This document shows positions 2,468-47,639 of a stretch of 64,000 nucleotides of DNA, one piece after another. This stretch comes from Candidatus Manganitrophaceae bacterium. GTDB lineage: Bacteria; Nitrospirota; Nitrospiria; SBBL01; JAADHI01. The position numbers were made by a program, and so were the translations under genes. The notes beneath the pieces were generated by a model. It ran no database searches, had not been told where the DNA came from, and saw nothing but the letters and a program-made list of their open reading frames with translations. How positions within the stretch are numbered: the first letter of the stretch is position 1; each line of letters begins with the position of its first letter. Location: positions 41,718 to 105,717 of the forward strand of contig JAADHI010000124.1 of the NCBI GenBank assembly GCA_013151935.1, read 5' to 3'.

Positions 2468-2487
2468 GAAAGCATGGAGGAGCAACA

Positions 2488-3090
2488 ATGGATATATTCT
2501 CAAAACCCAGTGTTATTGACGATGATATCATCAAAAACCTTGGGCCCTTTGCACCATTTGCAGGGACTTGGGAGGGAGACAAGGGCCTGGATATTTCTCC
2601 CTCCAAGACGGGCCCAGTTGAAACACATTTTAGAGAACAGATCACCCTTGAACCCATGGGACCCGTCGTAAATGGTCCTCAAGTCCTCTATGGTCTAAAA
2701 TACGCAACAAGCGCTTGGCCCTTAGGCCAGGATGCCGCTTTTCATGAAGAAGTCGGGTATTGGTTGTGGGATGCAAAAGAGCAACAGGCGATGCGTTGTT
2801 TCATTGTCCCACGTGGCATTGCAATCAACGCAGGTGGACACGCAGATCTACACAACACCACAATAGAACTCTCCGCCGAAGTGGGTTCTGAAACCTACGG
2901 TATTTTGTCTAACCCTTTTCTGGATGAAGCCTTCAAAACAGTGCGTTACACCCTTAAACTTACTTTGCACGAAGATGGGAGCTTTAGCTATTTTGAAGAC
3001 ACTGAGCTAAAGATCCAGGGTCAAGAAATACACTTCCATCATACCGATCAAAACCGCTTGACACGATCGACCGATAAGCCACGTAATTGA
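2488..3090 (+). CDS. nitrobindin/THAP4-like heme-binding beta-barrel (DUF1794) family protein
   Basis: 200 aa. The N-terminal LGPFAPFAGTWEGDKG motif and the size are typical of this family. The call comes from remembered family features only. Confidence 0.45.
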   Translation: MDIFSKPSVIDDDIIKNLGPFAPFAGTWEGDKGLDISPSKTGPVETHFREQITLEPMGPVVNGPQVLYGLKYATSAWPLGQDAAFHEEVGYWLWDAKEQQAMRCFIVPRGIAINAGGHADLHNTTIELSAEVGSETYGILSNPFLDEAFKTVRYTLKLTLHEDGSFSYFEDTELKIQGQEIHFHHTDQNRLTRSTDKPRN

Positions 3091-3151
3091 TTTTTATCGA
3101 CCCAAATGCTATCTTGATCTACATTTTTCTGGGTCGATAAAGGAGGTTTCC

Positions 3152-3829
3152 GTGTTAAGGTACATTCGAGAAGGGGCGATTGACAATCCCTGGTTTTTCA
3201 GAATCGTCATGTTGGGCATTGCTGCCGTCTTCGCCGTTTCAATGGGCTGGTGGGGCTTTGGCGATAATGAAGATCCGGAAAACGTTCTTGCTCAAGTCGG
3301 TGAAGATCGCATCATGATCATTGAGTATCGGCGGGCCTACCAGAACGCCTCAAAATTTTATCGGGAACTTTTTCAGGGAGATTATGATGACGAAGCCCTC
3401 CGCCGACGCGTCATTGATGAACTGGTTGAACGCAGACTTTGGATTCAGGAGGCCCGAAGAATGCAAATATTCATCAGTGATGAAAGCCTAAAAGGTTCCA
3501 TCACTGCGATGCCCGGATTTCAGAGAGAAGGAACCTTTGATTCCGAGCTATATAAACGCGCCCTCGCCTCCGAACGCTACACGCCCAAAAGTTTTGAAGC
3601 CAGACAACGGAACACCCTCTTGGTCAAAAAAGCTCAACTACTCGTCAGAAGTGGTGTTTGGTTAACCCCCACAGAAATCAAAGAAGCCCAGGAATCTAAT
3701 CCTGCAAACCCTTCCGACAATAAAACCATTGAAGACCGTCTTTCCCGTAAAAAAGAACGTGCCATGAGAGCCTATGCGATCTCCCTCAAACAAAAAGCAG
3801 GAATCGTCATCAAAGACGAGTTATTGTAA
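3152..3829 (+). CDS. PpiD/SurA N-terminal-domain periplasmic chaperone-like protein (no PPIase domain)
   Basis: GTG start preceded by AAAGGAGG. There is an N-terminal membrane anchor (FFRIVMLGIAAVFAVSMGWWGF), followed by a SurA_N-like helical region. Confidence 0.5.
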   Translation: MLRYIREGAIDNPWFFRIVMLGIAAVFAVSMGWWGFGDNEDPENVLAQVGEDRIMIIEYRRAYQNASKFYRELFQGDYDDEALRRRVIDELVERRLWIQEARRMQIFISDESLKGSITAMPGFQREGTFDSELYKRALASERYTPKSFEARQRNTLLVKKAQLLVRSGVWLTPTEIKEAQESNPANPSDNKTIEDRLSRKKERAMRAYAISLKQKAGIVIKDELL

Positions 3830-3875
3830 GCCCTTTCTCCCCTCCTGAAACCGCCTCTTCACTCTTGACATCACA

Positions 3876-4850
3876 CTAAAGCCGTACTCTGGGATCAACC
3901 CAGGTATAGGAAATATCCGTAAGAATCAGCCCTAGAATGTATAGCACTGAGCCCAAAAACACCATCGCGCGGACGATACTGAAATCTTGGCTGTTAATCG
4001 CATCAATCGTGTAACTGCCCAGACCCGGGATGCTGAAGAAGGATTCGGTGATGAGACTGCCCATAAAAAGCAGAGGGATGACGACAACCACGCCTGTTAA
4101 AATGGGGACGAGGGCGTTTCGCAGGACGTGGGAGAAAAGTACACTCAGCTCTGAAAGCCCTTTGGCGCGTGCGGTACGGACATAGTCTTTTCCAATTTCT
4201 TCGAGGAAGATGCTGCGATACCAGCGCGTACCGCTGCCGATGCCACCCACCAATCCCACAATAACGGGCAGGATTAAAAACTTGACGGCATCCAAACCCG
4301 TGTCGTAACCCGAAATGGGGACAAGTCGAAACATTTTACTAAATAAAAATTGGCCACCAATGATGTAAAAAAGCGATGAAATAGACATCATCGCCACAGC
4401 AATGATGACGGCCCAAGTATCAATGTAAGTTGCGCGAAAAAAAGCAATGATCATGGCAACGGTAATATTAACGAAGAGCCCGACGATCAAACTGGGGATG
4501 GCAATCGCCAGACTCGGCCACATGCGCTCTCGAATATCCGAGCCGATGTTTCGCCCATCGTCCGCAAAACCAAAATCAAAGACAAAAAGTCGCAGGGATT
4601 TTTCAAAAAATACCGTTTGAGTTAGTTTTCCAAAGCCTTCAGCTTGGGCATTAAATGCGATGGGTTTGTCATAACCGTGATCGGCCTTCCATTTTTCGAT
4701 GGCTTCGGGTGTGACACGTTTCATACCCAACTGAAGCCGCGCCATATCATCCGGGGTATTCACCACAAAAAAGAGCAGAAAAGTCAATAAATTGACTCCG
4801 ATTAAAATTGGAATGGCATACAAACTGCGACGAATAATGTAGCTGATCAC
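3876..4850 (-). CDS. ABC transporter permease, OppB/DppB type
   Basis: 324 aa and multi-TM. The EAA-loop region is YVRTARAKGLSELSVLFSHVLRNALVP. It lies directly downstream of the family-5 binding protein, 1 nt apart. Confidence 0.8.
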   Translation of the reverse strand: MISYIIRRSLYAIPILIGVNLLTFLLFFVVNTPDDMARLQLGMKRVTPEAIEKWKADHGYDKPIAFNAQAEGFGKLTQTVFFEKSLRLFVFDFGFADDGRNIGSDIRERMWPSLAIAIPSLIVGLFVNITVAMIIAFFRATYIDTWAVIIAVAMMSISSLFYIIGGQFLFSKMFRLVPISGYDTGLDAVKFLILPVIVGLVGGIGSGTRWYRSIFLEEIGKDYVRTARAKGLSELSVLFSHVLRNALVPILTGVVVVIPLLFMGSLITESFFSIPGLGSYTIDAINSQDFSIVRAMVFLGSVLYILGLILTDISYTWVDPRVRL

Positions 4851-8121: not shown

Positions 8122-9326
8122 CAGTGGGGATCCTCCATATCGGGCAGAACAGAAAGCCCTGGCAGGACTTTGCCCTCTAGAAGTTGTAGTGCTGCCCCTC
8201 CACCCGTTGAAATAAAGGAAATATTTTCAGATTCGTTGGCCTGATGCACCGCCATCGCCGTTTCACCTCCGCCAACGATGCTCAAAGCATAGGCATTTGC
8301 AACAGCGTGGGCGATGGCTGAAGTACCCCGTGAATAGGCATCTACTTCAAAGAGCCCCATGGGGCCATTCCAAAGAATGGTTTTTGCGTTGGCCAAGGCC
8401 TCTGTAAATAAATGAACCGAGGCCCGACCAATATCCAAACCCATCCATCCCTTTGGAATTTCCTGAACCGGCACAGACTTCGCTTCAGCCGAAGGATCTT
8501 TACTCGCGGCAACAACACAGTCCACGGGCAAATAAAATTTAATCCCTCGGGCAATGGCATTTTGCATAATTTCACGCGCAAAATCGAGCATGGAATCCTC
8601 AACAAGCGAGTTCCCCACATCAATACCAGAAGCCTTTAAAAAGGTGAAGGCCATACCGCCACCCACAATGACTTTGTCTACATTGGGCCCCAGATTTTCG
8701 ATCACACCAATTTTCCCGGAAACCTTCGCCCCCCCCAAAATCGCCACAAAGGGACGCGCCGGACTTGAAACGGCACGAACAAGATAAACAATCTCCTTTT
8801 TCATGAGGAAACCACAGGCCTTGCTCTGGATCAATTCGGCAAGCCTGATGGTTGAGGCATGTTCACGGTGGGCCGTACCAAACGCATCGTTAATATAAAC
8901 ATCGAGACGCAGCTTTGCGAGAGAGCGTGCAAAAGCCGCATCATTTTTCTGCTCTCCGGCATGAAACCTCAAATTTTCCAAGAGTAGGATTTCACCTGGC
9001 TTAAGGTTTCTTGCCATTTTTTCTGTTTGTGGTCCGATACAGTCATCAGCAAACAAAACGTCCTTTCCCAGGAGACGTTGCAATCGTTTTGCAAGTGGGG
9101 CAAGGGAAAATCGGGGGTCTGCACCCTTTGGCCGACCTAAATGCGACGCCAAAATAATAGAAGCCCCCTCATCAATGGCATAGTTAATCGTGGGTAGGGC
9201 AGAGCGAATACGCGTATCATCCGTGATATTTAAATTGTCATCTAAGGGCACGTTAAAATCAACACGAATGAAAAGCTGTTTGCCTTTGATGTCGATATCT
9301 TCGATGGTGACTTTATTGGTATTCAT
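8121..9326 (-). CDS. pgk: phosphoglycerate kinase
   Basis: RVDFNVP, ASHLGRPKG and the C-terminal STGGGA motifs. The track ORF starts at 9464 inside gap. The canonical start is MNTNKVTIEDIDIKGK at 9326. Confidence 0.95.
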   Translation of the reverse strand: MNTNKVTIEDIDIKGKQLFIRVDFNVPLDDNLNITDDTRIRSALPTINYAIDEGASIILASHLGRPKGADPRFSLAPLAKRLQRLLGKDVLFADDCIGPQTEKMARNLKPGEILLLENLRFHAGEQKNDAAFARSLAKLRLDVYINDAFGTAHREHASTIRLAELIQSKACGFLMKKEIVYLVRAVSSPARPFVAILGGAKVSGKIGVIENLGPNVDKVIVGGGMAFTFLKASGIDVGNSLVEDSMLDFAREIMQNAIARGIKFYLPVDCVVAASKDPSAEAKSVPVQEIPKGWMGLDIGRASVHLFTEALANAKTILWNGPMGLFEVDAYSRGTSAIAHAVANAYALSIVGGGETAMAVHQANESENISFISTGGGAALQLLEGKVLPGLSVLPDMEDPH

Positions 9327-9342
9327 ATCAAACGCTTCGCCT

Positions 9343-10347
9343 TTAGAGGCTTTTCCCCACGTATAAAACAAGATCACGAACGCGGCAGGAATAACCCCAT
9401 TCGTTGTCGTACCACGAAACCACTTTGGCCATGCGTTTGTTGATGACACTTGTAAGGGGACCATCCACGATTGAAGAATGTGTATTGCCTTTAAAATCGA
9501 TGGAAACCAAGGGGACTTCGGTATAGGCCAGGATACCTTTTAGTTCATTCTCAGCCGCATTTTTAAATACGGCTTGAATTTCAGCAATATCCGCATCTCG
9601 ATTGAGCATCACCACAAGATCAATCACAGAAACATTCGGGGTTGGAACACGGATCGACATGCCGTCGAGTTTACCTGTCAAGCTGGGCAAGACTTCAGAA
9701 ATGGCTTTTGCCGCACCCGTCGTCGTGGGAATGATCGATTGCCCCGCCGTGCGCGCGCGCCGAAGGTCTTTGTGAGATCCATCAAGTAGCTGTTGATCAC
9801 GGGTATAAGCATGCACGGTCGTCATCAGTCCGCTTTGAATCCCAAAATGTTCATCCAGCACTTTAGCGACAGGGGCCAAACAGTTGGTGGTACAGGAAGC
9901 ATTGGAAATAATATCGTGGCTTTTCGCATCGTATTGGGATTCATTGACCCCAAGAACAACAGTGACATCTGGATTTTTGGCGGGGGCTGAAATGATGACT
10001 TTTTTTGCACCCGCCTCAAGATGTTGCTGGGCGGAGGGGCGATCTACAAAACGACCGGTAGACTCAACAACAAGATCAACCGCCATTTCTCGCCAAGGCA
10101 GATGGGCAGGACTTGTCTCGTGGGTCATCCGAATAGATTTCCCATCAATGAGCAGACAATCATCTTTGGCTTCAACCGTGTGATTAAATTGTCCATGCAC
10201 GGAATCGTATTTGAGTAAGTGTGCCAGTGTCGATGCATCACCCAAGTCGTTAATCGCTACGATTTCTAAGTCAGGATGTGCAAAGGCACATCTCAGAACA
10301 TTTCGTCCAATTCTCCCAAATCCGTTAATTCCAACACGTAAAGACAT
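9343..10347 (-). CDS. gap: glyceraldehyde-3-phosphate dehydrogenase (type I)
   Basis: GINGFGRIGRNVLR and the active site SNASCTTNCLAP. 334 aa. Confidence 0.95.
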   Translation of the reverse strand: MSLRVGINGFGRIGRNVLRCAFAHPDLEIVAINDLGDASTLAHLLKYDSVHGQFNHTVEAKDDCLLIDGKSIRMTHETSPAHLPWREMAVDLVVESTGRFVDRPSAQQHLEAGAKKVIISAPAKNPDVTVVLGVNESQYDAKSHDIISNASCTTNCLAPVAKVLDEHFGIQSGLMTTVHAYTRDQQLLDGSHKDLRRARTAGQSIIPTTTGAAKAISEVLPSLTGKLDGMSIRVPTPNVSVIDLVVMLNRDADIAEIQAVFKNAAENELKGILAYTEVPLVSIDFKGNTHSSIVDGPLTSVINKRMAKVVSWYDNEWGYSCRVRDLVLYVGKSL

Positions 10348-10415
10348 CTTCTATCGGCTCCTTCAACTCTAAAATAAGTCCTTATTTTAAATCGGTTCTT
10401 GCTAAAAAAATAGAC

Positions 10416-12869
10416 TTAAAATGCACCCGATTCTTGATCAAACCTAAAAAAATCCGTAGGAGAAGAAAGGGTTTTTTCTTCATATTTAGGCTCGGTTCCC
10501 TTCACAAAAATTTCCATCTCACCACTCTCCCCTTCTTCGGCTAAATACCCTGTGGTGGGGTTAATTTTAGCATAAACAATCTCATCAGGAATAGAAAAAG
10601 GAACAACAGGCAGACGCGCCAGCGCCTCATCCATAAATGAAACCCAAATGGGTAAGGCCGTGCGTCCACCCGATTCATTGCGACCCAAAGAGCGGTTGTC
10701 ATCAAAACCCACCCAAACCCCTGCAGCCATATTAGGCGTATAGCCAACAAACCAAGCATCGGTATATTCGTTGGTTGTCCCTGTTTTTCCCGCAACAGGA
10801 CGACCCAAAACACGGGCGCGTTTTGCTGTGCCCCTTTGTACCACATCTTCCATGATATTTGTAACGACGTAGGCCGTCTCTTTCGAGAGGACCCGCTTGG
10901 GGACAAGATCTCGAGATTCCAGGACACGTCCATGTTGATCCGTCACGGATAAAATAAGCGTCGGCTCCACACGAATCCCTGCGTTGGCATAAACACCAAA
11001 AGCAGAGGTCAATTCCAAAAGACTCAGACCAGACGAACCCAAAGCCAAGGATAAATCTCGTGTCAAGGGACTTTTGATGCCGATACGCTGGGCATAAGAC
11101 ACAACACTTTTGATCCCAATTTGTCTCAGCAATTTGACTGTGGCAAGGTTTCGTGAATGGGTTAATGCGTCACGCAGCGTGGTCGGACCATAAAATTTTT
11201 TTTCGTAATTTTCCGGCTTCCAGACTTTATGCGTTGCATCGTCTGTAAAGATAACTGGATTGTCGATTAAAATACTGGCGGGCGTGAAACCCCGTTCAAT
11301 TGCGGTCCCGTAAATGATAGGTTTAAAAACGGAACCGGGCTGTCTTCTAGCAGATACGGCACGATTGTATTCGCTGCGTTTAAAATCATAGCCCCCCACC
11401 ATCGCACTAACCGTGCCTGTCGCAGGGTCTAAAGCAATGAATCCTCCTTCCACAATAGGTTCTTGCTCAAGGCTAAACAGGGTCTCATTTTCACTCAGTG
11501 TCTCCTCAAAAGCAGTGACTGCACGCGCTTGCGTCTGCTGATTTTCCAGAAGACCAACCTGTTTTACGCGCACGAGAACAATATCATCTGGTTTTAGGAT
11601 ATCTCCGGGTTTTGGATGCTCAATCAAAATCCTGTCTTTCCGAACATCACGCCCTTTCAGTTTTTGAGCTGCCCAAAGCATGTCTTCCAATAAAATTTTT
11701 CCAATAAACCCTTTTGCATCCACAAGGGCGTAGGCCTCCGTTCCAGATAAAACCCGCGCTTCTAAAAATTCACCCTGCTTTAATACTTCGCCTTCCCCCT
11801 TATGGGAAGCCTGAACCGCATCCCCGCTCACATCGGACTGATAAAGACGAACCGGACCACGATACCCTTGGCGTTTGTCCAGCTTCCTCAAACCCTCCCT
11901 CAGCGCACGTTCCGCCGTTTCCTGCATCTCTGCATTCAGGGTGGTGTAGACATTAAGCCCTCCCTTATAAAGAAGATCTGCGCCATAACGCTCAATGAGA
12001 TATTGACGTACGTACTCCGTAAAATAGAGTCCCGAAACGTCCCCAGGGTCTAGCTTTTGAAAAACAAGATCATTTTCATAGGCCTCACGATATCGATCTT
12101 TTGTAATGTACTGCTCAGCCAATAGACGTCTTAAGACAATACGCTGACGAAACTTCGCTTTTTCGGGGGCACGATATGGGGAATAATTATTGGGGGCTTT
12201 TGGCAGACCCGCGAGAAAAGCAGCCTCTTCCAAACTAATTTCAGAAACATCTTTTCCAAAATAGGTCTGACTGGCCACTTGCACTCCATAGGCACCATGA
12301 CCAAAATAAATCTGATTAAGGTAGATTTCGAGAATCTGATCCTTTGAGAGCATCACTTCCATTTTGCGTGAAAGAATCAGCTCCTTGATTTTACGCTGGA
12401 TGGTCCGCTCCGGGGTCAAAAAAAGGGAACGCGTAACCTGCTGCGTGATCGTGCTCGCGCCTTGCCTGATTGCACCACTTTGCACATTTTTGATAAACGC
12501 CCTCACGATCCGAATGGGATCAAAACCTTGGTGCTCATAAAAACGCGCGTCCTCCACCGCCAAAATAGCCTGGATCAGGTGTTTGGGCATCCGTTCAAAG
12601 GGAACAAAAACCCTTTTTTCAATATAAAATTCCCCAATCACTTTATTTTGGTCTGAATAAACCCGTGTAGCCTGACTTGGCGCGTAGCTTCCAGCGGCGC
12701 TGAGAGAGGGCAAATCCTGCGAAAAATAATAGAGCACACCTCCGACACTTGCCGCACCCAGAAGAAGGCAAACAAAACCAACAACAAGACCAATTTTTAG
12801 CCATCGCCAAACAAGATTTTTTTTGTTTTTAACAGGCACTTCTTCTCCCGTAAAATGCTTTACGTCCAA
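10416..12869 (-). CDS. mrcA: penicillin-binding protein 1A (bifunctional glycosyltransferase/transpeptidase)
   Basis: GT51 motifs EDARFYEHQGFD and RQGASTITQQ. Transpeptidase motifs SVFK (SxxK), SRN and KTGTT. A PBP1A-type insertion domain is present. TTG start with an upstream AAGGAAAA. Confidence 0.9.
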   Translation of the reverse strand: MDVKHFTGEEVPVKNKKNLVWRWLKIGLVVGFVCLLLGAASVGGVLYYFSQDLPSLSAAGSYAPSQATRVYSDQNKVIGEFYIEKRVFVPFERMPKHLIQAILAVEDARFYEHQGFDPIRIVRAFIKNVQSGAIRQGASTITQQVTRSLFLTPERTIQRKIKELILSRKMEVMLSKDQILEIYLNQIYFGHGAYGVQVASQTYFGKDVSEISLEEAAFLAGLPKAPNNYSPYRAPEKAKFRQRIVLRRLLAEQYITKDRYREAYENDLVFQKLDPGDVSGLYFTEYVRQYLIERYGADLLYKGGLNVYTTLNAEMQETAERALREGLRKLDKRQGYRGPVRLYQSDVSGDAVQASHKGEGEVLKQGEFLEARVLSGTEAYALVDAKGFIGKILLEDMLWAAQKLKGRDVRKDRILIEHPKPGDILKPDDIVLVRVKQVGLLENQQTQARAVTAFEETLSENETLFSLEQEPIVEGGFIALDPATGTVSAMVGGYDFKRSEYNRAVSARRQPGSVFKPIIYGTAIERGFTPASILIDNPVIFTDDATHKVWKPENYEKKFYGPTTLRDALTHSRNLATVKLLRQIGIKSVVSYAQRIGIKSPLTRDLSLALGSSGLSLLELTSAFGVYANAGIRVEPTLILSVTDQHGRVLESRDLVPKRVLSKETAYVVTNIMEDVVQRGTAKRARVLGRPVAGKTGTTNEYTDAWFVGYTPNMAAGVWVGFDDNRSLGRNESGGRTALPIWVSFMDEALARLPVVPFSIPDEIVYAKINPTTGYLAEEGESGEMEIFVKGTEPKYEEKTLSSPTDFFRFDQESGAF

Positions 12870-16658: not shown

Positions 16659-18428
16659 CTATCCAATAATAATCCTTTCTTCTGGATAGGTATACTTCCC
16701 CTTCATCACGCGCTCTGCAATACTAAAAGCAAGTGTCAGTGAACCAATGCGTCCGATAAACATCGTGACAATAATAATCAGTTTTCCGATTGGGCTCAAT
16801 TCAGAAGTAATCCCCGTTGATAGCCCAACTGTATTAAACGCTGAGACCGACTCAAATACAATCGCTTTAAAATCTCCCTCTTCCGTAAATAATAACAGCA
16901 ACAAAAACATCGCTAACAAGGCTGAAGAGGAAAATGCAATTGAAAGAGATTTTCTCACCGCAAGTGGAGAAAAACTTCTCCTAAAAAGAGAAACCTGCTC
17001 ACGCTGATTCAACATGGCTTTCAGGGTCGCCAACATCACACCAAAGGTTGTTGTTTTAATGCCGCCAGCAGTGGATGCGGGAGAGCCTCCAATCCACATG
17101 AGTAAAATCAAGAGGAAGAGCGTTGCATCAGAAAAATCGCCCACATTCAAGGTATTAAAACCCGCCGTCCGCGCAGTAACCGAGTGAAAAAAAGCGGCGA
17201 ACCATTTGTCAAACCAAGAAAGCCCTGCAAGTGTCCCCTGAAACTCAAGGATATAAATACCCAAGGTCCCGACCGCAAGCAAACCACCGGAAATAGACAG
17301 CACCATCTTGGAGTGGAATGAAAGACGCCAGGCCGCGCGCCCCTTCCTTCTCATCGGATAACTGAGTAGATTGCTGATGACTGGAAAACCGATACCTCCG
17401 AGAATAACCAACACTGCAATGACCCCATTCATCGGAATGTTACCCAAAAAACCTTCAAGATTCGTGGAGAAGAGCGAAAAACCCGCATTACAAAAAGCAG
17501 AAACCGCATGAAAGATCGCTGTAAAAATAGGTTGATCTGTCTCTTTGGGTAAAAAAAAGTAGATCAACAAGGCGCCCAGTGTTTCAATCACCAGCGTAAG
17601 TAAAAAGATCAGTCGTATCTCTTTTCTCACCGTTCCAACAGACTCCGTCTCAAGCACGCCCTGTAGGGCCACCGCATCCTGAAGCTTAATTCTCTTATTT
17701 GACACGAGAGAAAAAAGTACTCCAAAAGTCATGATGCCCAAGCCTCCCGTTTGAATGAGAAAAAGGATGACCCAGATTCCGCTCGGTCGATAAAATTCAG
17801 AAATCGGCCCCAGGGTTAGCCCCGTTACCGTTGTGGCTGAGGTTGCTGTAAATAGCGCATCAATAATCACAATTTTGGAAGGATCGATCACCATTTGAGG
17901 AAGAGAGAGCAGCATAGTGCCCACCAAAATGACCAGGAGAAAACCCATCGTCATGGTCTGTGCGGGCCTCAGATGTAGGCCCCCCAGAAACCGCGCAATA
18001 ATATTCAGACGGAGCCCGTAAATTGCAAAAGAAGACATAAAAAAAATCATGCTGTAAGCACGATAGGGATTGATTAAAAAGTCAAAGGACTCGCCCCACA
18101 TCGAAAACAGAATCACAACTTTCTCAAAATAAAAAAGCAGACAAACCCCAAAGAGGGCGATGGGAATCAGCTTTTTTTGCCAGGAAAGACGCCGAAAGCG
18201 TAGATGTAACAGTTTTTCTTCAAAGGCAAGTTTGACCAACACACCTGCCTGAAAAAGAAGCGCGATGCTCCGACAAATCATCGGGAACCAAACTGAAAAA
18301 TCGAGTAAGAGGGATAAAAGAAGTATCCCGGGCATCGAAAAATATTTCACCCCACGCACCTGGGTCGTGAGGGCTTGAGAGGCCTGGTTTATCTTGTCGC
18401 GGATGTGTTTAAAAACAATGCGTCTCAC
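16659..18428 (-). CDS. trkH: TrkH/KtrB-family potassium transporter with extended N-terminus
   Basis: 589 aa and polytopic. It has repeated pore-loop-like GFN/GLS segments (TARTAGFNT, SAFNTVGLSTG). The GTG start is uncertain. Confidence 0.8.
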   Translation of the reverse strand: MRRIVFKHIRDKINQASQALTTQVRGVKYFSMPGILLLSLLLDFSVWFPMICRSIALLFQAGVLVKLAFEEKLLHLRFRRLSWQKKLIPIALFGVCLLFYFEKVVILFSMWGESFDFLINPYRAYSMIFFMSSFAIYGLRLNIIARFLGGLHLRPAQTMTMGFLLVILVGTMLLSLPQMVIDPSKIVIIDALFTATSATTVTGLTLGPISEFYRPSGIWVILFLIQTGGLGIMTFGVLFSLVSNKRIKLQDAVALQGVLETESVGTVRKEIRLIFLLTLVIETLGALLIYFFLPKETDQPIFTAIFHAVSAFCNAGFSLFSTNLEGFLGNIPMNGVIAVLVILGGIGFPVISNLLSYPMRRKGRAAWRLSFHSKMVLSISGGLLAVGTLGIYILEFQGTLAGLSWFDKWFAAFFHSVTARTAGFNTLNVGDFSDATLFLLILLMWIGGSPASTAGGIKTTTFGVMLATLKAMLNQREQVSLFRRSFSPLAVRKSLSIAFSSSALLAMFLLLLLFTEEGDFKAIVFESVSAFNTVGLSTGITSELSPIGKLIIIVTMFIGRIGSLTLAFSIAERVMKGKYTYPEERIIIG

Positions 18429-18451
18429 AAATTCGCCCCGCTTGTTTACAC

Positions 18452-18491
18452 ATAAATCGCGGATTCAAAAAAAACTAAATCCGCGATTTAT
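18452..18491 (-). terminator. strong hairpin downstream of sat (possible terminator)
   Basis: Perfect 14-nt arms ATAAATCGCGGATT / AATCCGCGATTTAT with a 12-nt A-rich loop. No clean U-tract follows on the minus strand. Confidence 0.4.
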
Positions 18492-18533
18492 CTCGAAAAA
18501 TCCGAGCAGACACAAGCTTTAGGAAGCTAAAGA

Positions 18534-19691
18534 TTATTTAGTCATGGCTTCGATCAGGATCTTGGCCACTTCTGGACGACTGAATTCTGGTGGCGGTTTA
18601 ATGCCCTGGCTGAGCATTTCCCGAACCTTCGTCCCAGAAAGGGCGATACGCTGAGAGGCATCATGCGAACAGGTTTTTGCCGAGGCCATACCAATACAAC
18701 GTTTGCAATAGAATGAATGATCAAAAAAAAGCGGCTGGATCCCAAGCGCATCCGCTTCAAATTCTTTAAAAATATTTTGCGCATCGTAGGTCCCGTAAAA
18801 ATCACCGACCCCCGCATGATCACGTCCAACAATAAAATGTGTCACCCCATAATTTTTGCGGCAAATCGCGTGAAAAATCGCCTCTTTTGGTCCACCGTAA
18901 CGCATGGCCGCCGGAAAAACAGAGAGCATTGTACGATCTTTTGGATAATAATTTTCAAGCAGGACTTTATAACAATCCATACGGACATCCGCCGGAATAT
19001 CTCCCTTTTTTGTCGCCCCCACAATCGGGTGCAACAGAAGTCCATCGGTAATCTCCATCGCACATTTTTGAATATATTCATGAGCACGATGCACAGGATT
19101 GCGCGTTTGAAATGCCACAATACGATTCCAGCCTTTTTCTAAAAAGGCTTGCCGGGTTTCTGCTGGGGTCAAGCGATGCTCGGAAAAAGCTTGCGCCGCA
19201 GGTGGTCTCAACATGTCAATTTTCCCACCCAGGAGCACATCCCCCTGCGAATGCGTATACGCAACACCAGGATGACTGTCATCGTTTGTGCCATAAGCTG
19301 CGAGCGCTTCTTTTTCTTTGTCGAAGGGAAATTTCTCCTCAAGCTGCAATATCGCCAAGACAAGACCCTTCTGATCTTGCAGCGCAATCTCTGATCCTTC
19401 ATTGAAAGAAGCCGCTTCTGCTGATGTCGCAGACAAGGTAATGGGCAAACTCCAAGGTAAACCATTCACCAGATGCATTGATTTGAGCACACTTTCATAA
19501 TCTGCACGCCCCATAAAACCTTCAAGGGGTGAAAAAACGCCTGTCGCAATGAGTTCTAAATCCGAAATCTCACGCGCTGACAATTGAATGGTCTTAAGGG
19601 AACCGGCTTTCGATTCCAAGTCTCTTAGCCTCTCCACCGCGACAAAACGATTGATTAGCTGACCGCCATGCGGCACTGAAATACTCATCAC
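18534..19691 (-). CDS. sat: sulfate adenylyltransferase (ATP sulfurylase)
   Basis: QTRNPVHRAHE and VGRDHAGVG motifs. 385 aa. Confidence 0.9.
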   Translation of the reverse strand: MMSISVPHGGQLINRFVAVERLRDLESKAGSLKTIQLSAREISDLELIATGVFSPLEGFMGRADYESVLKSMHLVNGLPWSLPITLSATSAEAASFNEGSEIALQDQKGLVLAILQLEEKFPFDKEKEALAAYGTNDDSHPGVAYTHSQGDVLLGGKIDMLRPPAAQAFSEHRLTPAETRQAFLEKGWNRIVAFQTRNPVHRAHEYIQKCAMEITDGLLLHPIVGATKKGDIPADVRMDCYKVLLENYYPKDRTMLSVFPAAMRYGGPKEAIFHAICRKNYGVTHFIVGRDHAGVGDFYGTYDAQNIFKEFEADALGIQPLFFDHSFYCKRCIGMASAKTCSHDASQRIALSGTKVREMLSQGIKPPPEFSRPEVAKILIEAMTK

Positions 19692-19754
19692 TATCTCCTC
19701 AAATACATACCCTTATAAATGATCTGTTTTTTTCTTATTTCAAGTCGACAGCGT

Positions 19755-20141
19755 CTAGATCGAGAAATCAAGACCTTGCTCGCTGTCCTCAACCTGTTCA
19801 TCCAAAGCGATTTTCATCACCTTTGTGCGAATCGTAAACGTCTCTTTTTTCCCACGAACATCGACCGCATCCCAAGTAATAAAATCACGGTCTTTGTGGA
19901 TATGCGGCGCAAGTGTTGCCTCACGTGACCCAAACTGGTACGAAAGATGAAACTCAATGGCTTCTTCGGGACAGACCTTGATACAAGGGAGACAATCCCA
20001 ACAATCTTCGGGGTATTTGAGATACGCTTTGTTGACACTGTGATCTTTTACAATAAGATCTCCGGGACACATTCTTAAACAAGGGGGCTGACGCGAACTA
20101 TGACAGCCATTGCATTTATCCGGGTCAATCCAAACAGGCAT
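19755..20141 (-). CDS. aprB: adenylylsulfate (APS) reductase beta subunit-like 2x[4Fe-4S] protein
   Basis: MPVWIDPDKCNGCHSSRQPPCLRMCPGDL and CWDCLPCIKVCP parallel the two AprB cluster motifs (A. fulgidus MPSFVNPEKCDGCK...CEYICPNDL, CWECYSCVKMCP). At 128 aa it is short. Confidence 0.75.
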   Translation of the reverse strand: MPVWIDPDKCNGCHSSRQPPCLRMCPGDLIVKDHSVNKAYLKYPEDCWDCLPCIKVCPEEAIEFHLSYQFGSREATLAPHIHKDRDFITWDAVDVRGKKETFTIRTKVMKIALDEQVEDSEQGLDFSI

Positions 20142-20188
20142 TCTCTTTCCTCACTTTCTAAAATGAAACTTAAATAATGACGTCACAA

Positions 20189-21910
20189 TCAGGGTTTATA
20201 GCGGTCTCCGGGAACAAGCTGCTCATAAGGCCGCGTCATCAACACTATTTTTCCACTTTGTGGGTCTCTCACCGAATTAACAAATTTCAACCAATTGACA
20301 TCATCCCGCTCTGGATAATCCGTCCGTGTATGATAGGTCGGCCAACGGGTTTCTTTTCGATAAGCCATGTGCTCTACAAGCACTTGCGCCACATCAATTC
20401 GGTCAATCACTTCATGGGCCTTCATCAGTTGATGCAAATCCTCCGCAACCAAACCCGAAACTTCCTGCGGCAAATCTGCAAGTTTTTTTCGGGCGATTGC
20501 AAGCATTTCTTCATTCATCTCATAATAAGTGGATGCCCCGCCAGCATACTGTTCCATAATTTTCTGAAGTCGGGATTCGAGCTCTGAAGATTTAATGCCA
20601 TGTTTCATTTTCGCATGATTTTCAAAAGGGCCAAAAGCACGACGCTCTTCTGCTGCAATACGCTCCTCTGAGACAAGCACCTTTTCTTCCATCCGCTCAA
20701 TATCCGAACCCATTGCACGGGCCGCCAAGACGCCTTCCGCCCAACAACCAGAAACAAATTTAAAAGGCGCACCGCCTGCAACATCTCCCGCCGCGTAAAG
20801 CCCTTTAAGGGTTGTTCTACGATCCACATCCACCCAATACCCGGACTGGCAATGTCCACCCACAATATAGGGCTCCGTCGTCTGCACTTCAACGGGTTCG
20901 GCTCCCGGATCAATATCATTGGCCAACCAATACAGCACCTGAGAGGGATACATATCGAGATAGGCTTTTTTGAGATCCGTTACTTTTTCTGCACTGATCC
21001 CGCGCGTATCCAAGTAGACAGGGCCACGACCTGCTTTGATCTCTTGAATCGGGCCGTGGGCGCGATAAGGCGTAGGCGCGCCATCGCCTCCAATATCCGC
21101 ATAACGAGAAACCATAAAACGCTCCCCCTTTGCATTCACCTGGGGTGCGCCCGCGCCAAGTGCAATCGTACCTGTGGGTGCGATTGCATCTTTTGTTCTC
21201 AAGGCAACATAACGCATTTCATAAGAAGTCATCTCCGCACCTGCACGAATGCCCATCGCATAACCTGCACCCGTATTGTAGGGAGAGTACCAGGTTTTAT
21301 GGGAAGCATCTCCGGCATTATTAGGACGATAAAGCCCTGCTGCGCCACCCGTGGCGATGAGAACGGCCTTCGCGTTCACCACATAAAGTTTTCCATTTCT
21401 CAGGGAAAAACCCACGGCCCCCGTCACACGCTCTCCCTCAGTTAGAAGATTGGTCACCGTAATCCAGTTATAAACCTTTGCTCCCGCCGAGCGTGCGGCT
21501 TTCGCCAAAATAGGTTTAAGGGACTCTCCGTTGATTTTAATATTCCAACGACCCCGTGGCACATAGTCCCCATTTTCATCAGATAAAATCGGAAGACCCC
21601 ATTTTTCAACTTTTTTCACACAATATTCAAACAACTCCGACATGCTTTTCACCAAATCTTCACGGATCAAACCGCAGGAGTCGGAGCGCACATAACGCAC
21701 AAAACTTTCAGGCGTTTCACCTTTATTCAAATAGGCATTTATCGCATTCATCCCGCCAGCAAGACAACCGCTCCGGTCGATATGTGCTTTTTCAAGAATA
21801 GTCACTTTGTATTGCGGAAATTTTTCTTTGACCTCAACGGCTGCCATGCAACCAGCGGTTCCACCCCCGATAATAAGGATGTCCGTTTCAATCGTTTGGC
21901 GTTCAATCAT
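20189..21910 (-). CDS. aprA: adenylylsulfate (APS) reductase alpha subunit-like flavoprotein
   Basis: ETDILIIGGGTAGC FAD fold, KWGLPI, INGESLKPI, LIATGGA, EPYIVGGH, LQKIMEQYAGG and RKETRWPTYHTRTDYPE are colinear with AprA. At 573 aa it is shorter than classical AprA. Confidence 0.75.
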   Translation of the reverse strand: MIERQTIETDILIIGGGTAGCMAAVEVKEKFPQYKVTILEKAHIDRSGCLAGGMNAINAYLNKGETPESFVRYVRSDSCGLIREDLVKSMSELFEYCVKKVEKWGLPILSDENGDYVPRGRWNIKINGESLKPILAKAARSAGAKVYNWITVTNLLTEGERVTGAVGFSLRNGKLYVVNAKAVLIATGGAAGLYRPNNAGDASHKTWYSPYNTGAGYAMGIRAGAEMTSYEMRYVALRTKDAIAPTGTIALGAGAPQVNAKGERFMVSRYADIGGDGAPTPYRAHGPIQEIKAGRGPVYLDTRGISAEKVTDLKKAYLDMYPSQVLYWLANDIDPGAEPVEVQTTEPYIVGGHCQSGYWVDVDRRTTLKGLYAAGDVAGGAPFKFVSGCWAEGVLAARAMGSDIERMEEKVLVSEERIAAEERRAFGPFENHAKMKHGIKSSELESRLQKIMEQYAGGASTYYEMNEEMLAIARKKLADLPQEVSGLVAEDLHQLMKAHEVIDRIDVAQVLVEHMAYRKETRWPTYHTRTDYPERDDVNWLKFVNSVRDPQSGKIVLMTRPYEQLVPGDRYKP

Positions 21911-21943
21911 AAGCTCTTGTATCCTTCTAATTTCTTTAATGTC

Positions 21944-22384
21944 TTAAATATGAAACATCAAAACGTCTTTTTCTTCCTTTTCTTTTGTCCGCAGACACAG
22001 CGCTTCAAGACTGATTGAGTTGAGATGAGCCTCAAGCCCGTCATTTATTTCGGCGTAAACTTCTTTTAAAACAATCTGTTCGACACTTCCATTTCGCGCA
22101 GAAGAGAGGTCCTTCGCAGAAATTGGCCCCTCGACCGCCTGAATGACTTCGCCAAAATAGATTTTATTCGGTGAACGTGTCAAGCGGTAGCCCCCATAAG
22201 GACCTCGCACACTTTCAACCAAGCCCTTCTTTTTCAGGGCACTCATGACCTGCTCCAAAAACCGAGGAGGGATAGATTTTTTTTCCGCAATACTTTTGAC
22301 CTGCAAGGGCTTTTCCCCCGGATGCAAGGACAAAGCCAGCATCGCCAAAATTGCATATTCCCCTTTTGCAGAGATAAATCGCAT
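21944..22384 (-). CDS. Rrf2-family transcriptional regulator (single Cys, no Fe-S ligand triad; CymR-like)
   Basis: Rrf2 N-terminal wHTH: MRFISAKGEYAILAMLALS...IAEKKSIPPRFLEQVMSALKKKGLVESVRGPYGGYRL. The whole protein has only one Cys. Confidence 0.8.
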   Translation of the reverse strand: MRFISAKGEYAILAMLALSLHPGEKPLQVKSIAEKKSIPPRFLEQVMSALKKKGLVESVRGPYGGYRLTRSPNKIYFGEVIQAVEGPISAKDLSSARNGSVEQIVLKEVYAEINDGLEAHLNSISLEALCLRTKEKEEKDVLMFHI

Positions 22385-22417
22385 AATTCCTACTATTCCG
22401 ATAAACTTAATGTAGTA

Positions 22418-22446
22418 TTAATAGTCGAGGATAAGGATCTTGTCAA
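22418..22446 (-). promoter_or_regulatory. sigma-70-like promoter of the rrf2-aprA-aprB-sat unit with adjacent inverted repeats
   Basis: The minus strand reads TTGACA-N17-TATTAA (-35 at 22441-22446, -10 at 22418-22423). Between the -10 and the start codon lie the inverted repeats TACTA/TAGTA and TACTATT/AATAGT (22391-22425), a candidate Rrf2 operator. Confidence 0.45.
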
Positions 22447-22718
22447 GTCTGAACAGACAAAAATGATGATCTGAGTAAGATATTCTGAGCTTGTTTCTCT
22501 CCTAATGTCATATAAAAAACACGTATTATTTTGCCTTGAACAAGAAGGCTGTGCCAGATATCCTCCATTAAGTATCTGTTTTTTAAGAACTTATTGCAAT
22601 AACAATCGCCTCAAAATGGATGCCAATTTCTTGACAAGCTTAGGGCCCTGTGGTACGGTTATTTCAGTTTTATTCTATTCGAAACAGACTGATTTTAACG
22701 ACTTCTGGGATCTGAAAA

Positions 22719-23498
22719 ATGCCGTTGCGCGTACTACTCGCCGATGAAAATCTTGCCGTGCAAAAGCTCGTTGAGTTGACCCTGAAAAACGAAGGCATTC
22801 AGCTCACTGCAACAGACAACAGCCTTTCTGCCCTTGATATCGCACTCAAAAAATCACCCGATATTATCTTGGCTGACTTTAATCTTGAGGGCTTGGACAT
22901 CTTTAGTTTTGTCAGTAAGATTAGACAAAACCCCCGGCTTTCTGATATCCCCATTATTCTGCTCATCAATGCAGCAGAAACCTTTGACCCCACACAATTG
23001 AGTTCTGTAGGGGTACAGGCCTTTTTCAAAAAACCGCTTGATTCCAAAGAACTACTGGATGAGATCAAAAAATTAACAGGGGATGCTGTTCAGGCCAGCG
23101 AGCGATCGAATAGCAGCTCAAAAAATGCTGACTCAGGTGTGTCTCAGCATTTTTCTGAATTGGAACAAGAAGCAGAAAAAATGGAAGCAGCCCTCGGTTG
23201 GTCTTCTTCTGTGGCGAAAAAATCAACAGAAGAAACAAGCCCTACCTCTGCGTCCTCTGGAAATTCAGAAAAATCCAATCTCCCTTTACATGACAGCCTC
23301 CTTGATGAAGCGATTCGTAAAAAAGTCCAGGAGTCCGTTGAAAAAGTCGCATGGGATGTTTTACCCGAGCTGCTCAGAACAGCGCTTTCCAAAGAAGCCA
23401 TGAGTCCCATTTTGGAAAAAGTGGCCTGGGAGGTTGTTACGCCCATCGCAGAAAGCGAGATCAAGAAAGAAATCGTACGCCTCCAAAACGGAAAATAA
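22719..23498 (+). CDS. response-regulator receiver protein with disordered S/E-rich linker and duplicated C-terminal motif
   Basis: REC: RVLLADEN...PDIILADFNLEGLD...IPIILL...FFKKPLD. The C-terminus carries two copies of EKVAW(D/E)V 27 aa apart. No DNA-binding or enzymatic output domain is recognisable. Confidence 0.7.
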   Translation: MPLRVLLADENLAVQKLVELTLKNEGIQLTATDNSLSALDIALKKSPDIILADFNLEGLDIFSFVSKIRQNPRLSDIPIILLINAAETFDPTQLSSVGVQAFFKKPLDSKELLDEIKKLTGDAVQASERSNSSSKNADSGVSQHFSELEQEAEKMEAALGWSSSVAKKSTEETSPTSASSGNSEKSNLPLHDSLLDEAIRKKVQESVEKVAWDVLPELLRTALSKEAMSPILEKVAWEVVTPIAESEIKKEIVRLQNGK

Positions 23499-36725: not shown

Positions 36726-37679
36726 CTACTGCATGCGAAAATAGTAGAGCGTTGTCTGCTGCCCCGTACGCCGAACCACGGCCGAGACGGTCTTGAAAGT
36801 GTCATTAACCTGACCCGTGGCTCTGAGGGTGAAAAACTGGCTGTCTTTTCTCTGCCAATCCCCGATACGGTTGATCACATCGGTGGATAAGAGGTTTCTA
36901 AACTCTGAACGCCAGGTGGTCGCCTCATCAAAGGGACGTTTTTCGATAATGCGGCGCGCCACAGACTCATCCAAATCAAGATCAAAACTCTGCAAAACCA
37001 AAGAATCTGCCGTATTGATATTGATCAAACCCTCCCCATAAACCGTCAGATAGGGAGAGATCTGAGTATAGATTGCATTCGTAATCCCGCGAACCATGTA
37101 CAACTCCTCTAAAGTCTGCATGGCTCCATTTCTCGCAGCATAACCCGGATTACCGGCTTGATAACTTGGACTTTCCGCACCATAAGGCATCGGAACATCA
37201 TCCGGGTCGATCCAATCCACAATCGCATCCGTCAAATCAGGATTGATCTCTAGCAGCTCAAACAAGCGCATGAGCTGGTCTTGCCTTTTTTGAATCACCT
37301 TGCCCGTACTCTGATTGACCAACTTATTGATATTGATCTTGCGTTCTTCGTCTACAATAAATCCACTCAATAGACCATCCCCCAGGGGATATTCTGGAAT
37401 GGCTGCGGCCCAGAACTCATCCACGCCATCATAAGCTGCGCTGTTTTTTGCATCATCTTTTAGCAGGGCTTCACCCGCAGAAATCCCGGAACGGGCAAGA
37501 TATTCGGCCTTTAAATCATCTCTAAAATTACCCGCAGCACGCAGATCCGCTCGAATCTGATAATCAGCCTCAAAAATAATGATCACCAAGAGCACAACGA
37601 TCAAAAGACTCAAAAGCAGCGCAAAACCATTTTGGTTTCGCAAGCCTGTGCCGGGATATTTAGGAAGCAACCTTTTCAT
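36726..37679 (-). CDS. gspK: type II secretion system minor pseudopilin GspK
   Basis: N-terminal NGFALLLSLLIVVLLVIIIF. The HhH-type segment is TLEELYMVRGIT...ININTADSLVLQSF...ARRIIEKRPF. It overlaps gspM by 20 nt. Confidence 0.8.
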   Translation of the reverse strand: MKRLLPKYPGTGLRNQNGFALLLSLLIVVLLVIIIFEADYQIRADLRAAGNFRDDLKAEYLARSGISAGEALLKDDAKNSAAYDGVDEFWAAAIPEYPLGDGLLSGFIVDEERKININKLVNQSTGKVIQKRQDQLMRLFELLEINPDLTDAIVDWIDPDDVPMPYGAESPSYQAGNPGYAARNGAMQTLEELYMVRGITNAIYTQISPYLTVYGEGLININTADSLVLQSFDLDLDESVARRIIEKRPFDEATTWRSEFRNLLSTDVINRIGDWQRKDSQFFTLRATGQVNDTFKTVSAVVRRTGQQTTLYYFRMQ

Positions 37680-38229
37680 AAGAAAGGACCAGGAAAGTAA
37701 CGTCCATCAAATCTGGATTCGAAAACCGTGTTTTCATGGAGAGTCGCTTAATCCGCAAACGATTCTTGCTGTTTTCAAGTGCAGCGAGGAAAGGGATGAT
37801 TTCAGATAGCCGAACCTTTTCGACTTTGACTTCGACTGGAACTTCTCGGTATCGCGACAGGTGTTCCTGTGCTGCCAGTGGTCGGATAAAAGCGATATTG
37901 CCTTTGATCCTATTTTTTGCCGCGTGTTCTTCAAGAAAGGAGAGGGCTGAAAAGCTACTTTCTTCTGGAAGCGCATGCACAATGGCGTCAATTTCTTTCG
38001 AGACGCCCTGAAACGACTGCTTTAAGTCTATGAGTTCACTCAAGTCGCGTTCCTTCCGAGGGATCAAGCTATCCAACTGCTTCATGCGTTCCAGTGTTGG
38101 ATCAACCAGAAAAAAGAAAATAATAAGAAAACTTGCGATAAAACCACCACCGCCCAACATCCATTTTTCCCGTGTGGAAAGACGAATCAAAAACTGATCA
38201 ATCCTTCCTAAAAATCCACTTTTTTCCAT
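37660..38229 (-). CDS. gspM: type II secretion system protein GspM
   Basis: 189 aa and bitopic (TM GGGGFIASFLIIFFFLV). The call rests on its position after gspL and its size and topology. Confidence 0.6.
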   Translation of the reverse strand: MEKSGFLGRIDQFLIRLSTREKWMLGGGGFIASFLIIFFFLVDPTLERMKQLDSLIPRKERDLSELIDLKQSFQGVSKEIDAIVHALPEESSFSALSFLEEHAAKNRIKGNIAFIRPLAAQEHLSRYREVPVEVKVEKVRLSEIIPFLAALENSKNRLRIKRLSMKTRFSNPDLMDVTFLVLSYEKVAS

Positions 38230-38277
38230 TGCTTTTTATGTCCTCATGTTCCGCAAATGATGCCCAAAGCTTTTCAC

Positions 38278-39972: not shown

Positions 39973-39984
39973 TACAAGCTGCGT

Positions 39985-40884: not shown

Positions 40885-40890
40885 CAACAC

Positions 40891-41550: not shown

Positions 41551-41554
41551 CGGA

Positions 41555-41965: not shown

Positions 41966-42002
41966 ATGGCAAAAAGGGTCTCTTTTTACACCTAAGTTCA
42001 AG

Positions 42003-42978: not shown

Positions 42979-43025
42979 CACTTTCCTCAAATTCATTCCG
43001 ATTGAAGCCCTCACTTAAAAATACC

Positions 43026-45953: not shown

Positions 45954-45997
45954 AGTAACCTCTAAGGGGTGTGAAAAACCTGTGACAAAACGGGCTT

Positions 45998-46176
45998 AGA
46001 AACCTCTGATTAAGTCTGGATTGGATGTTCCAAGAGAAACTTTTGGTCGATTCGAGATAAAAATCACGGGCAATAACCCGTTTGATTCAAAACTAGCACC
46101 AATAGTAAACGCTTTCGCGACGCAGAAATGGGACATAATGGCCTTAAAAACCGATTCATAACTTGATCAGAGTTTG
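45998..46176. repeat. intergenic inverted-arm element, copy B (about 179 bp) between gspD and gspE
   Basis: Left arm AGAAACCTCTGATTAAGT (45998-46015, identical to copy A). Right arm ACTTGATCAGAGTTTG (46161-46176) ends 2 nt from the gspD stop codon. The interior blocks are colinear with copy A. Confidence 0.7.
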
Positions 46177-46178
46177 TT

Positions 46179-47633: not shown

Positions 47634-47639
47634 TAGGTC

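Follow-up and report, generated by a model that had tools for sequence, protein, structure and literature searches.

Between positions 18534 and 22446, on the minus strand of a 64-kb stretch of DNA from a Candidatus Manganitrophaceae bacterium (phylum Nitrospirota; contig JAADHI010000124.1, positions 41,718 to 105,717), lie four co-oriented open reading frames (ORFs) in the order rrf2, aprA-like, aprB-like and sat. The whole 64-kb stretch is termed the window in the following, and all coordinates refer to it unless they carry the label of another locus. The operon probably serves sulfur assimilation: a single promoter would direct the synthesis of an ATP sulfurylase (Sat) and an AprAB-type enzyme which reduces adenosine 5'-phosphosulfate (APS) directly with electrons from a soluble donor, and the Rrf2 protein would repress its own operon. 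It is a typical representative of a widespread family that is already known and for which a solved structure, an NCBIfam model and, in the nearest relatives, a published pathway assignment are available. For direct orthologues the assimilatory reading has already been published, as stated in the part of the article by Yu et al. (2022; PMC9040806) considered here. The observations on the substrate-specificity residues with their APS kinase context and on a conserved box upstream of rrf2, both described below, reach beyond the literature examined.

Operon and gene products

The first gene, rrf2 (21944..22384, minus strand as all four), encodes a CymR/IscR-like regulator of 146 residues with the Rrf2 winged-helix domain (PF02082, 122 bits); it contains one Cys and thus no set of three Cys ligands for an Fe-S cluster. 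The aprA-like gene (20189..21910) codes for a 573-residue flavoprotein with flavin adenine dinucleotide (FAD) from the family of short assimilatory (P)APS reductases, and the aprB-like gene (19755..20141) for a 128-residue ferredoxin subunit with two [4Fe-4S] cluster sites and without the long C-terminal tail of the canonical protein. The last gene, sat (18534..19691; 385 aa, GTG start), specifies a homo-oligomeric ATP sulfurylase devoid of an APS kinase domain (NF003166, 567.6 bits versus a cutoff of 387). The intergenic gaps amount to 33, 47 and 63 nt in this order. Pfam and NCBIfam assign Rrf2 to the first product, FAD_binding_2 and Succ_DH_flav_C to the second, a double [4Fe-4S] ferredoxin to the third, and PUA_2 and ATP-sulfurylase to the fourth. 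A first-pass annotation of the locus had already described the four genes with the same spacing, the flavoprotein ahead of the ferredoxin subunit and sat in the last position, and our coordinates agree exactly with it; likewise, its statements that both four-Cys motifs of AprB are intact and that the Rrf2 protein has a single Cys are borne out by the counts.

Relationship to known reductases

The AprA-like protein belongs to the family of short AprA proteins, as it reaches 775.5 bits with the corresponding NCBIfam model NF005331 (563 positions, cutoff 557) and fails the canonical aprA equivalog TIGR02061 (466.1 bits, cutoff 641.75). AprB also fails its canonical model, TIGR02060, with 75.3 bits (cutoff 135.65), covering profile positions 1–107 of 132. 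The best match of AprA in the PDB, and thus its closest solved relative, is 8A8O_A, the α subunit (571 aa) of the reductase for 3'-phosphoadenosine 5'-phosphosulfate (PAPS) from Methanothermococcus thermolithotrophicus (MtPAPSR), whose structure was determined at 1.45 Å resolution (PMC10322725). Both proteins are of the same length class and alignable from end to end (residues 6–567, small gaps only) with 643 bits and 54% identity. Archaeoglobus fulgidus AprA (AfAprA) is matched with 406 bits and 43% identity, and many insertions are needed for its alignment. The PDB matches of AprB are 3GYX_B, 1JNR_B and 8A8O_C.

The catalytic and cofactor-binding residues are well conserved. Asn58, Trp207, Arg238, Arg283 and His353 of the window AprA correspond to Asn74, Trp234, Arg265, Arg317 and His398 of AfAprA, and these five catalytic or FAD-contacting residues are invariant in an alignment of 11 members of the clade; MtPAPSR likewise retains the catalytic Asn, Arg and His, together with the Trp-Tyr pair that binds FAD. 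AprB contains eight Cys (C10, C13, C21, C25, C47, C50, C53 and C57) as well as the relay residue Trp48. Compared with the canonical AprBA complexes of A. fulgidus (1JNR/2FJA) and Megalodesulfovibrio gigas (3GYX), the window enzyme is predicted to share the fold, the FAD, the two [4Fe-4S] clusters and the catalytic residues including Trp144 (Trp122 in the window), and sat is linked to both. The window proteins differ from them in that AprA lacks about 50–70 residues of surface loops and that AprB, with 128 residues against 150 in A. fulgidus and 166 in M. gigas, appears to lack the long tail wrapping AprA. Moreover, the canonical order is aprB-aprA with linkage to qmoABC or aprM, whereas aprA precedes aprB here and no Qmo/Hdr or AprM-like gene was found among the 49 ORFs surveyed in the 64 kb.

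These features were taken in the first-pass annotation as signs of an atypical locus, which they are not. Short subunits, the order aprA-aprB and the lack of Qmo or AprM are the norm in a large family with its own NCBIfam model and crystal structure. Since the subunit lengths are common to the crystallised MtPAPSR, they represent a family trait and not a peculiarity of this locus, and a short aprB gene directly after aprA among sulfate-activation genes is equally in line with family membership. With a family of this gene order already known, the situation in which the first-pass annotation would itself have given up the idea of a divergent lineage, a well-known clade with routine aprA-aprB order, is nearly realised; the label APS reductase given there is not established, as the sole assayed member of the family prefers PAPS.

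Apart from the similarities mentioned, the window enzyme shares with MtPAPSR a short β subunit with two [4Fe-4S] clusters, the lack of Qmo or AprM and the assimilatory role. In contrast to MtPAPSR, the operon is headed by an Rrf2 regulator gene, the host is a bacterium, and AprB is longer by about 24 residues with an acidic C-terminus. An acidic C-terminal extension of about 20–25 residues (ALDEQVEDSEQGLDFSI in the window, 19755–19830) is found in the Nitrospirota AprB proteins (127–128 aa), whereas neither the MtPAPSR β subunit (104 aa) nor most of the remaining members (about 105–111 aa) have it. It may serve as a docking tail for a partner protein.

The automatic annotations by PGAP and IMG, "adenylyl-sulfate reductase" and "dissimilatory adenylylsulfate reductase", would correspond to a canonical dissimilatory enzyme of a sulfate-respiring organism, encoded apart from its Qmo and Dsr partners. 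We regard this as hardly conceivable in view of the failed cutoffs of both canonical models, the wrong gene order, the missing AprB tail and surface loops, and a host lineage composed of aerobic or microaerophilic lithoautotrophs. Furthermore, the contig of a Bacillota metagenome-assembled genome (MAG; locus L036) holds a canonical aprB-aprA pair and a short aprA-aprB pair about 5 kb apart (2173–4519 and 10001–12165), and because both occur side by side the two types must be considered as distinct paralogues. The canonical AprA of this contig is 36% identical to the window AprA, and its short pair carries Lys-Trp-Asn at the specificity positions discussed below.

Conservation and spread of the cassette

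A protein search with the window AprA at E ≤ 1e-20 yielded at least 8000 candidates. Nearly all of the best 120 among these at least 8000 proteins comprise 561–596 residues, the exceptions being two partial sequences and one protein of 631 residues, and the named sources of the same 120 are mostly MAGs of Nitrospiria, Ca. Manganitrophaceae, Nitrospirota and Leptospirillia. Three relatives with called genes contain the same Rrf2-AprA-AprB-Sat cassette within wholly different flanking genes. Altogether, such cassettes, surrounded by unrelated genes, occur in Nitrospiria, Ca. Manganitrophus and Leptospirillia. The direct orthologues in Ca. Manganitrophaceae show the same AprA-AprB-Sat order with an rrf2 gene upstream, and the AprA of Ca. 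Manganitrophus sp. GAC4 (CP114561.1, locus L018) is 85% identical to that of the window over the longer of the two segments of a split gene. In this genome the AprA match (L018:10001–11712) falls into two tblastn segments and the ORF ends at 462 residues, which may reflect a frameshift by assembly error or a pseudogene in a MAG genome designated as complete.

Scanning a single genome for each GTDB species added 80 further loci of the AprA family, and 85 loci entered the comparison of motifs and gene context, for which up to 10 kb on each side were examined. Besides Nitrospirota, among them the complete Ca. Manganitrophus genome, the 80 loci derive from Leptospirillum, Schekmanbacteria, Thermodesulfobacteriota, Actinomycetota, Armatimonadota, Methanobacteriota, Halanaerobiales and very many Clostridia such as Blautia, Eubacterium, Pelosinus and Sporomusa. 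As aprB, wherever it was detected (79 loci), is encoded downstream of aprA and in the same orientation, the order aprA-aprB is the rule in the short family; Sat, CysDN, CysC or a sulfite reductase (Sir) is encoded near aprAB in these 79 loci. Among the 31 loci of the motif class of the window (x-Trp-Asn/Gly, termed xWN), sat follows aprB in 20, and an Rrf2 gene on the same strand is placed at or near the head of the cassette in 13.

The cassettes also vary in composition. In a Nitrospirota MAG (locus L012) the order is Rrf2, sulfite reductase (NIR_SIR plus Fer4), AprA, AprB and Sat, which by its gene content would constitute a complete kinase-free route from sulfate to sulfide. The small sulfite reductase gene (8874–10004) is inserted between rrf2 and aprA, and the Rrf2 protein of this locus (8479–8904) contains three clustered Cys in an IscR-like ligand pattern versus the single Cys in the window. 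Manganitrophus-type cassettes carry, at the same place between rrf2 and aprA, a gene for an anion permease of the TauE/SafE family (L005:3317–4258, L006:616–1485, L007:9092–9964 and L018:9023–9964; PF01925 confirmed for L018, the others identified by tblastn), in contrast to the window and locus L001, which have none.

Evidence for an assimilatory role

In the considered part of their study, Yu et al. (PMC9040806) list sat, aprA-B and the assimilatory sulfite reductase gene aSir as an assimilatory pathway in the core genome of Ca. Manganitrophaceae. According to the corresponding portion of their core-genome table, the genes for AprA, AprB and Sat are consecutive and single-copy in 8/8 genomes and have non-zero values in seven numeric columns, which we read as expression data; the table part examined also contains a ferredoxin-type sulfite reductase and no KEGG orthology entry for cysC or cysH. 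In the sections considered the pathway is treated at the annotation level, with no biochemistry, substrate call or regulator analysis. A biochemical precedent is provided by MtPAPSR, which has the architecture and proposed mechanism of a dissimilatory APS reductase, yet fulfils an assimilatory role (PMC10322725). It was probably acquired by horizontal transfer from a bacterium, and ferredoxin was suggested as its electron donor (PMC10322725). Apart from this 2023 paper, no relevant follow-up studies of bacterial enzymes of the MtPAPSR type came up in literature searches. Altogether, MtPAPSR as closest solved relative, the sulfite reductase within the L012 cassette and the pathway in the portion of PMC9040806 considered here uphold the functional proposal of the first-pass annotation, namely a divergent AprAB lineage serving assimilation, one of the roles named there, and not dissimilatory sulfate reduction.

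On this basis we propose the following scenario. One σ70-type promoter would drive rrf2-aprA-aprB-sat. Sat would convert sulfate to APS, and the AprAB-like heterodimer, composed of the FAD-containing α subunit and the β subunit with two [4Fe-4S] clusters, would generate sulfite by FAD-N5 chemistry as in dissimilatory APS reductase. The enzyme is expected to be soluble and to receive its electrons from a low-potential soluble donor, probably ferredoxin, instead of a membrane complex of the Qmo or AprM type. The final step to sulfide would then fall to a sulfite reductase whose gene lies elsewhere in the genome. If the clade of the window enzyme takes APS directly, as we infer, sulfite would be formed from sulfate in two steps with neither APS kinase nor 3'-phosphoadenosine 5'-phosphate (PAP) phosphatase being required. 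As its most likely function, the Rrf2 protein without cluster would bind a conserved upstream box and repress the operon that encodes it; by analogy with CymR, it might release the box under sulfur or cysteine limitation.

The reverse direction, in which AprAB oxidises sulfite to APS and Sat forms sulfate and ATP for sulfite detoxification or energy gain, appears very unlikely to us. It would be in keeping with the reversibility of canonical Sat-AprAB, and weak hints are the permease of the "sulfite exporter" family in the Manganitrophus cassettes and some metagenome papers which interpret Nitrospirota aprAB-sat as sulfite oxidation and thereby speak against assimilation. One of these is an aquifer study, from whose MAG series one of the short-type loci compared here appears to originate, as judged by the isolate name. 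On the other hand, MtPAPSR has no measurable reverse activity (PMC10322725), the surveyed ORFs of the window include no AprM or Qmo which would pass electrons to quinone, the regulator is CymR-like and the cassette is linked to an assimilatory sulfite reductase. Furthermore, the genes belong, as far as the considered part of PMC9040806 goes, to the single-copy core and are apparently expressed at non-zero levels in Mn-oxidising cultures with sulfate as the anabolic sulfur source.

Substrate specificity

The PAPS specificity of MtPAPSR was ascribed to Lys120, Arg121 and Ser122, and Gln145 of AfAprA would clash with the 3'-phosphate of PAPS (Jespersen and Wagner 2023; PMC10322725). The triad reads Gln-Trp-Gln in A. 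fulgidus AprA, Lys-Arg-Ser in MtPAPSR and Arg-Trp-Asn (Arg121-Trp122-Asn123) in the window AprA, the latter being invariant across the 11-member clade alignment. The window enzyme hence does not carry the PAPS triad; at the position of Lys120 it stays basic, while Trp and Asn take the places of Arg121 and Ser122, the Trp being that of a true APS reductase. Neither does it have the canonical APS pocket, as Glu141, Gln143, Trp144 and Gln145 of AfAprA correspond to Arg119, Arg121, Trp122 and Asn123, so that the Trp alone is retained.

The triad is accompanied by differences in gene context. In the 31 xWN loci Sat is adjacent in 20, a sulfite reductase gene is present in 5, and neither CysC (APS kinase) nor a CysD-like gene occurs in the DNA examined (up to 10 kb on each side); the 54 loci with all other triads show an adjacent Sat in 1, CysC in 6, a CysD-like gene in 34 and a sulfite reductase in 26. 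CysC is likewise missing from the entire 64-kb window, and the window locus, unlike that of MtPAPSR, contains neither an APS kinase nor a DHH-type PAP phosphatase gene (no search aimed at PAP phosphatase was made in the relatives). Every locus with Ser at the third triad position (5/5) has CysC within 2.6 kb compared with 1/80 of the others (Fisher p about 2e-7, hand-computed and uncorrected, including for phylogeny), and in 4 of these 5 the APS kinase gene is located directly upstream of aprA. In a neighbour-joining tree rooted on A. fulgidus (unbootstrapped), a Lys-Trp-Asn pair is basal and is followed by the Arg-Trp-Asn group including the window protein; MtPAPSR resides together with Firmicutes in a separate x-Arg-Ser/Asn clade, outside of which the window protein is found.

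In the gut and soil Clostridia of the collection (L039–L084), most short AprA proteins carry Asn-Arg-Asn with a CysD-like gene behind them and usually no APS kinase in the DNA examined. The weak tblastn matches to "CysH" after aprB in Clostridia are most likely due to CysD, a member of the same superfamily.

Given an assimilatory role, we favour direct APS reduction as the likelier activity of the window enzyme, as far as it can be judged from the protein sequences, because Arg-Trp-Asn occupies the triad and no APS kinase adjoins the operon, unlike in every Ser-type locus. The other option within the same assimilatory role is a PAPS reductase like MtPAPSR, with APS kinase and PAP phosphatase encoded elsewhere. 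It draws on observations that weigh against direct APS reduction: MtPAPSR, the only biochemically characterised member of the family, strongly prefers PAPS (0.114 versus 0.007 U/mg with APS; PMC10322725) and is the best PDB match. The entire short family, including the window protein and MtPAPSR, has Arg in place of AfAprA Glu141, which could favour the 3'-phosphate. Moreover, the association between Ser and CysC relies on about two independent lineages in the unbootstrapped tree, and an APS kinase gene may be present elsewhere in the genome, the view being confined to 64 kb here and to at most 10 kb on each side in the relatives. We nevertheless consider a PAPS reductase unlikely since merely the basic character of the triad is kept, CysC is found in none of the 31 xWN loci within the DNA examined against all Ser-type loci, the L012 cassette combines Rrf2, Sir, AprA, AprB and Sat with no kinase, and the Manganitrophaceae pathway is given as sat, aprAB and aSir in the portion of PMC9040806 considered here.

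Promoter, conserved box and regulator

Upstream of rrf2, a −35 hexamer TTGACA (22441..22446, minus strand) and, 17 nt further, a −10-like hexamer TATTAA (22418..22423, minus strand) can be read directly in the DNA, as proposed in the first-pass annotation. The −10-like hexamer matches TATAAT in 4/6 positions, and a consensus promoter scanner omits the site because the final T is lacking. An equivalent TTGACA is present in 11/11 aligned rrf2 upstream regions of Nitrospirota, and the relatives carry A/T-rich −10-like hexamers at the equivalent position. This alignment of 160 nt upstream of rrf2 from 11 loci, reaching from Nitrospiria to Leptospirillia, revealed a conserved box between the −10 hexamer and the start codon with the consensus TATCGGAATAGTAG (22390..22403, minus strand, in the window). 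Within the box, ATCGG is found in 11/11 and ATCGGAAT in 9/11 regions, it begins 15–23 nt ahead of the start codon in the ten measurable regions, and the surrounding DNA is unconserved apart from TTGACA, the box and the A/T-rich hexamer. No second match to the 14-mer with up to 2 mismatches exists in the 64 kb, yet a match of equal quality arose in 20/100 shuffles, so that its position and not its uniqueness has to be regarded as evidence. Likewise, the bare 8-mer ATCGGAAT is frequent by chance in the loci (41 and 59 matches) and gains meaning solely through its fixed position upstream of rrf2.

Situated immediately downstream of the −10 hexamer, the box is well placed for a repressor and for autoregulation of all four genes, and TATCGGAATAGTAG is a likely candidate for the autoregulatory operator. 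The first-pass annotation had placed an operator with inverted repeats at 22391–22425; the location is supported by the conserved box inside this interval, whereas the inverted repeat is weak, a search having found no repeat of at least 8 nt there and the arms (ACTATT/AATAGT) being 6 nt only. The box itself is without clear dyad symmetry, and its 3' part may overlap the ribosome-binding site or its 3' end may be merely the Shine-Dalgarno region, which counts against an operator. It may resemble the 3' half of the Bacillus subtilis CymR box (ATMGGAATTW).

The Rrf2 protein resembles CymR in that an Rrf2 fold is present without the three Cys cluster ligands and in its predicted control of sulfur-assimilation genes. 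CymR serves Bacillus and Staphylococcus as the master repressor of their cysteine metabolism and acts on CymR boxes in sulfur gene promoters, in dependence on CysK and O-acetylserine. The CymR model NF047409 is its best specific NCBIfam match, with 105.7 bits below the equivalog cutoff of 195; the IscR model gives 92.8 bits (cutoff 207.55). A further difference from CymR is the co-transcription of rrf2 with its predicted target operon. In Clostridium acetobutylicum, the operon CAC0102-0110, which contains cysC and cysDN, is a predicted CymR target. Promoter-like regions of two Firmicutes loci (L033:3726 and L063:854) contain AATCGGAATA-type boxes resembling that of the Nitrospirota, which hints, at the level of DNA similarity, at an operator type common to several phyla. 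The C. acetobutylicum operon presumably also includes an aprA-like gene, which we take to be CAC0104, the text of the paper on the operon being silent on it.

At the other end of the operon, 43 nt past the sat stop codon and ahead of trkH, a perfect 17-bp stem-loop with a U-rich loop (18452..18491, minus strand) is encoded. The surrounding segment of 116 nt (18425–18540) has a predicted folding energy of −37.5 kcal/mol (z = −4.06). The hairpin has no U-tail and thereby differs from a textbook intrinsic terminator; the transcript may have its 3' end at this site.

Genomic neighbourhood

The operon is flanked by trkH/trkA and a gene for a REC protein, the neighbours already noted in the first-pass annotation. 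When 45 more ORFs from all over the window (49 including the operon) were surveyed with Pfam, none was identified as qmo/hdr, aprM, dsr, cysC, cysH or a gene for sulfite reductase, which for qmo, aprM and dsr is the same result as in the first-pass annotation. The surveyed ORFs outside the operon are of housekeeping type only, among others gap-pgk-tpi, PBP1, trkAH, an SNF2 helicase, ribonucleotide reductase, a type II secretion/pilus cluster and secA. This cluster extends as a long same-strand array, type II secretion/type IV pilus-like, from 36726 to 48554 and encodes a secretin, a T2SSE ATPase, T2SSF, pseudopilins, a PilM-like protein and T2SSK/M/C; a prepilin peptidase gene is situated at 59607–60446. 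Neither a riboswitch nor any other RNA element came up near the operon in the scans with Rfam and for tRNA genes, whose sole hit was a tRNA-Leu at 59447–59533. A perfect palindrome of 12 nt, TTATTGCAATAA, is present at 22591–22602, within the 334 bp that separate rrf2 from the divergently oriented REC-domain gene (22719–23498).

Implications

Three points raised by this locus are of moderate interest, namely the substrate taken by the Arg-Trp-Asn clade, the donor of its electrons and the Rrf2 operator. In a more far-reaching proposal, to which we give an even chance, the Arg-Trp-Asn clade would constitute a distinct class of ferredoxin-dependent assimilatory APS reductase, unlike the thioredoxin-dependent CysH and the PAPS-specific MtPAPSR. 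With it, Nitrospirota and several other phyla would have a Sat-AprAB-Sir route that dispenses with the kinase and is under the control of a cluster-less Rrf2 repressor via a box similar to the CymR operator, and the residue at position 123 (Asn or Ser) would predict the use of APS or PAPS throughout the family. The contrast between Arg-Trp-Asn and Lys-Arg-Ser, combined with its association with APS kinase, gives an inexpensive sequence-based predictor of this specificity that can be put to the test; mutagenesis of the specificity residues has already been proposed by Jespersen and Wagner (PMC10322725).

The main practical value lies in the interpretation of metagenomes. Annotation pipelines give these genes the names of (dissimilatory) adenylyl-sulfate reductases, and surveys use aprAB plus sat as markers of the dissimilatory sulfur cycle, as in the aquifer study mentioned, where aprAB and sat of Nitrospirota are taken as evidence for sulfite oxidation. 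The short aprA-aprB type is assimilatory and very widespread, in Nitrospirota as well as in many gut and soil Clostridia, and its recognition would strip false positives from such surveys.

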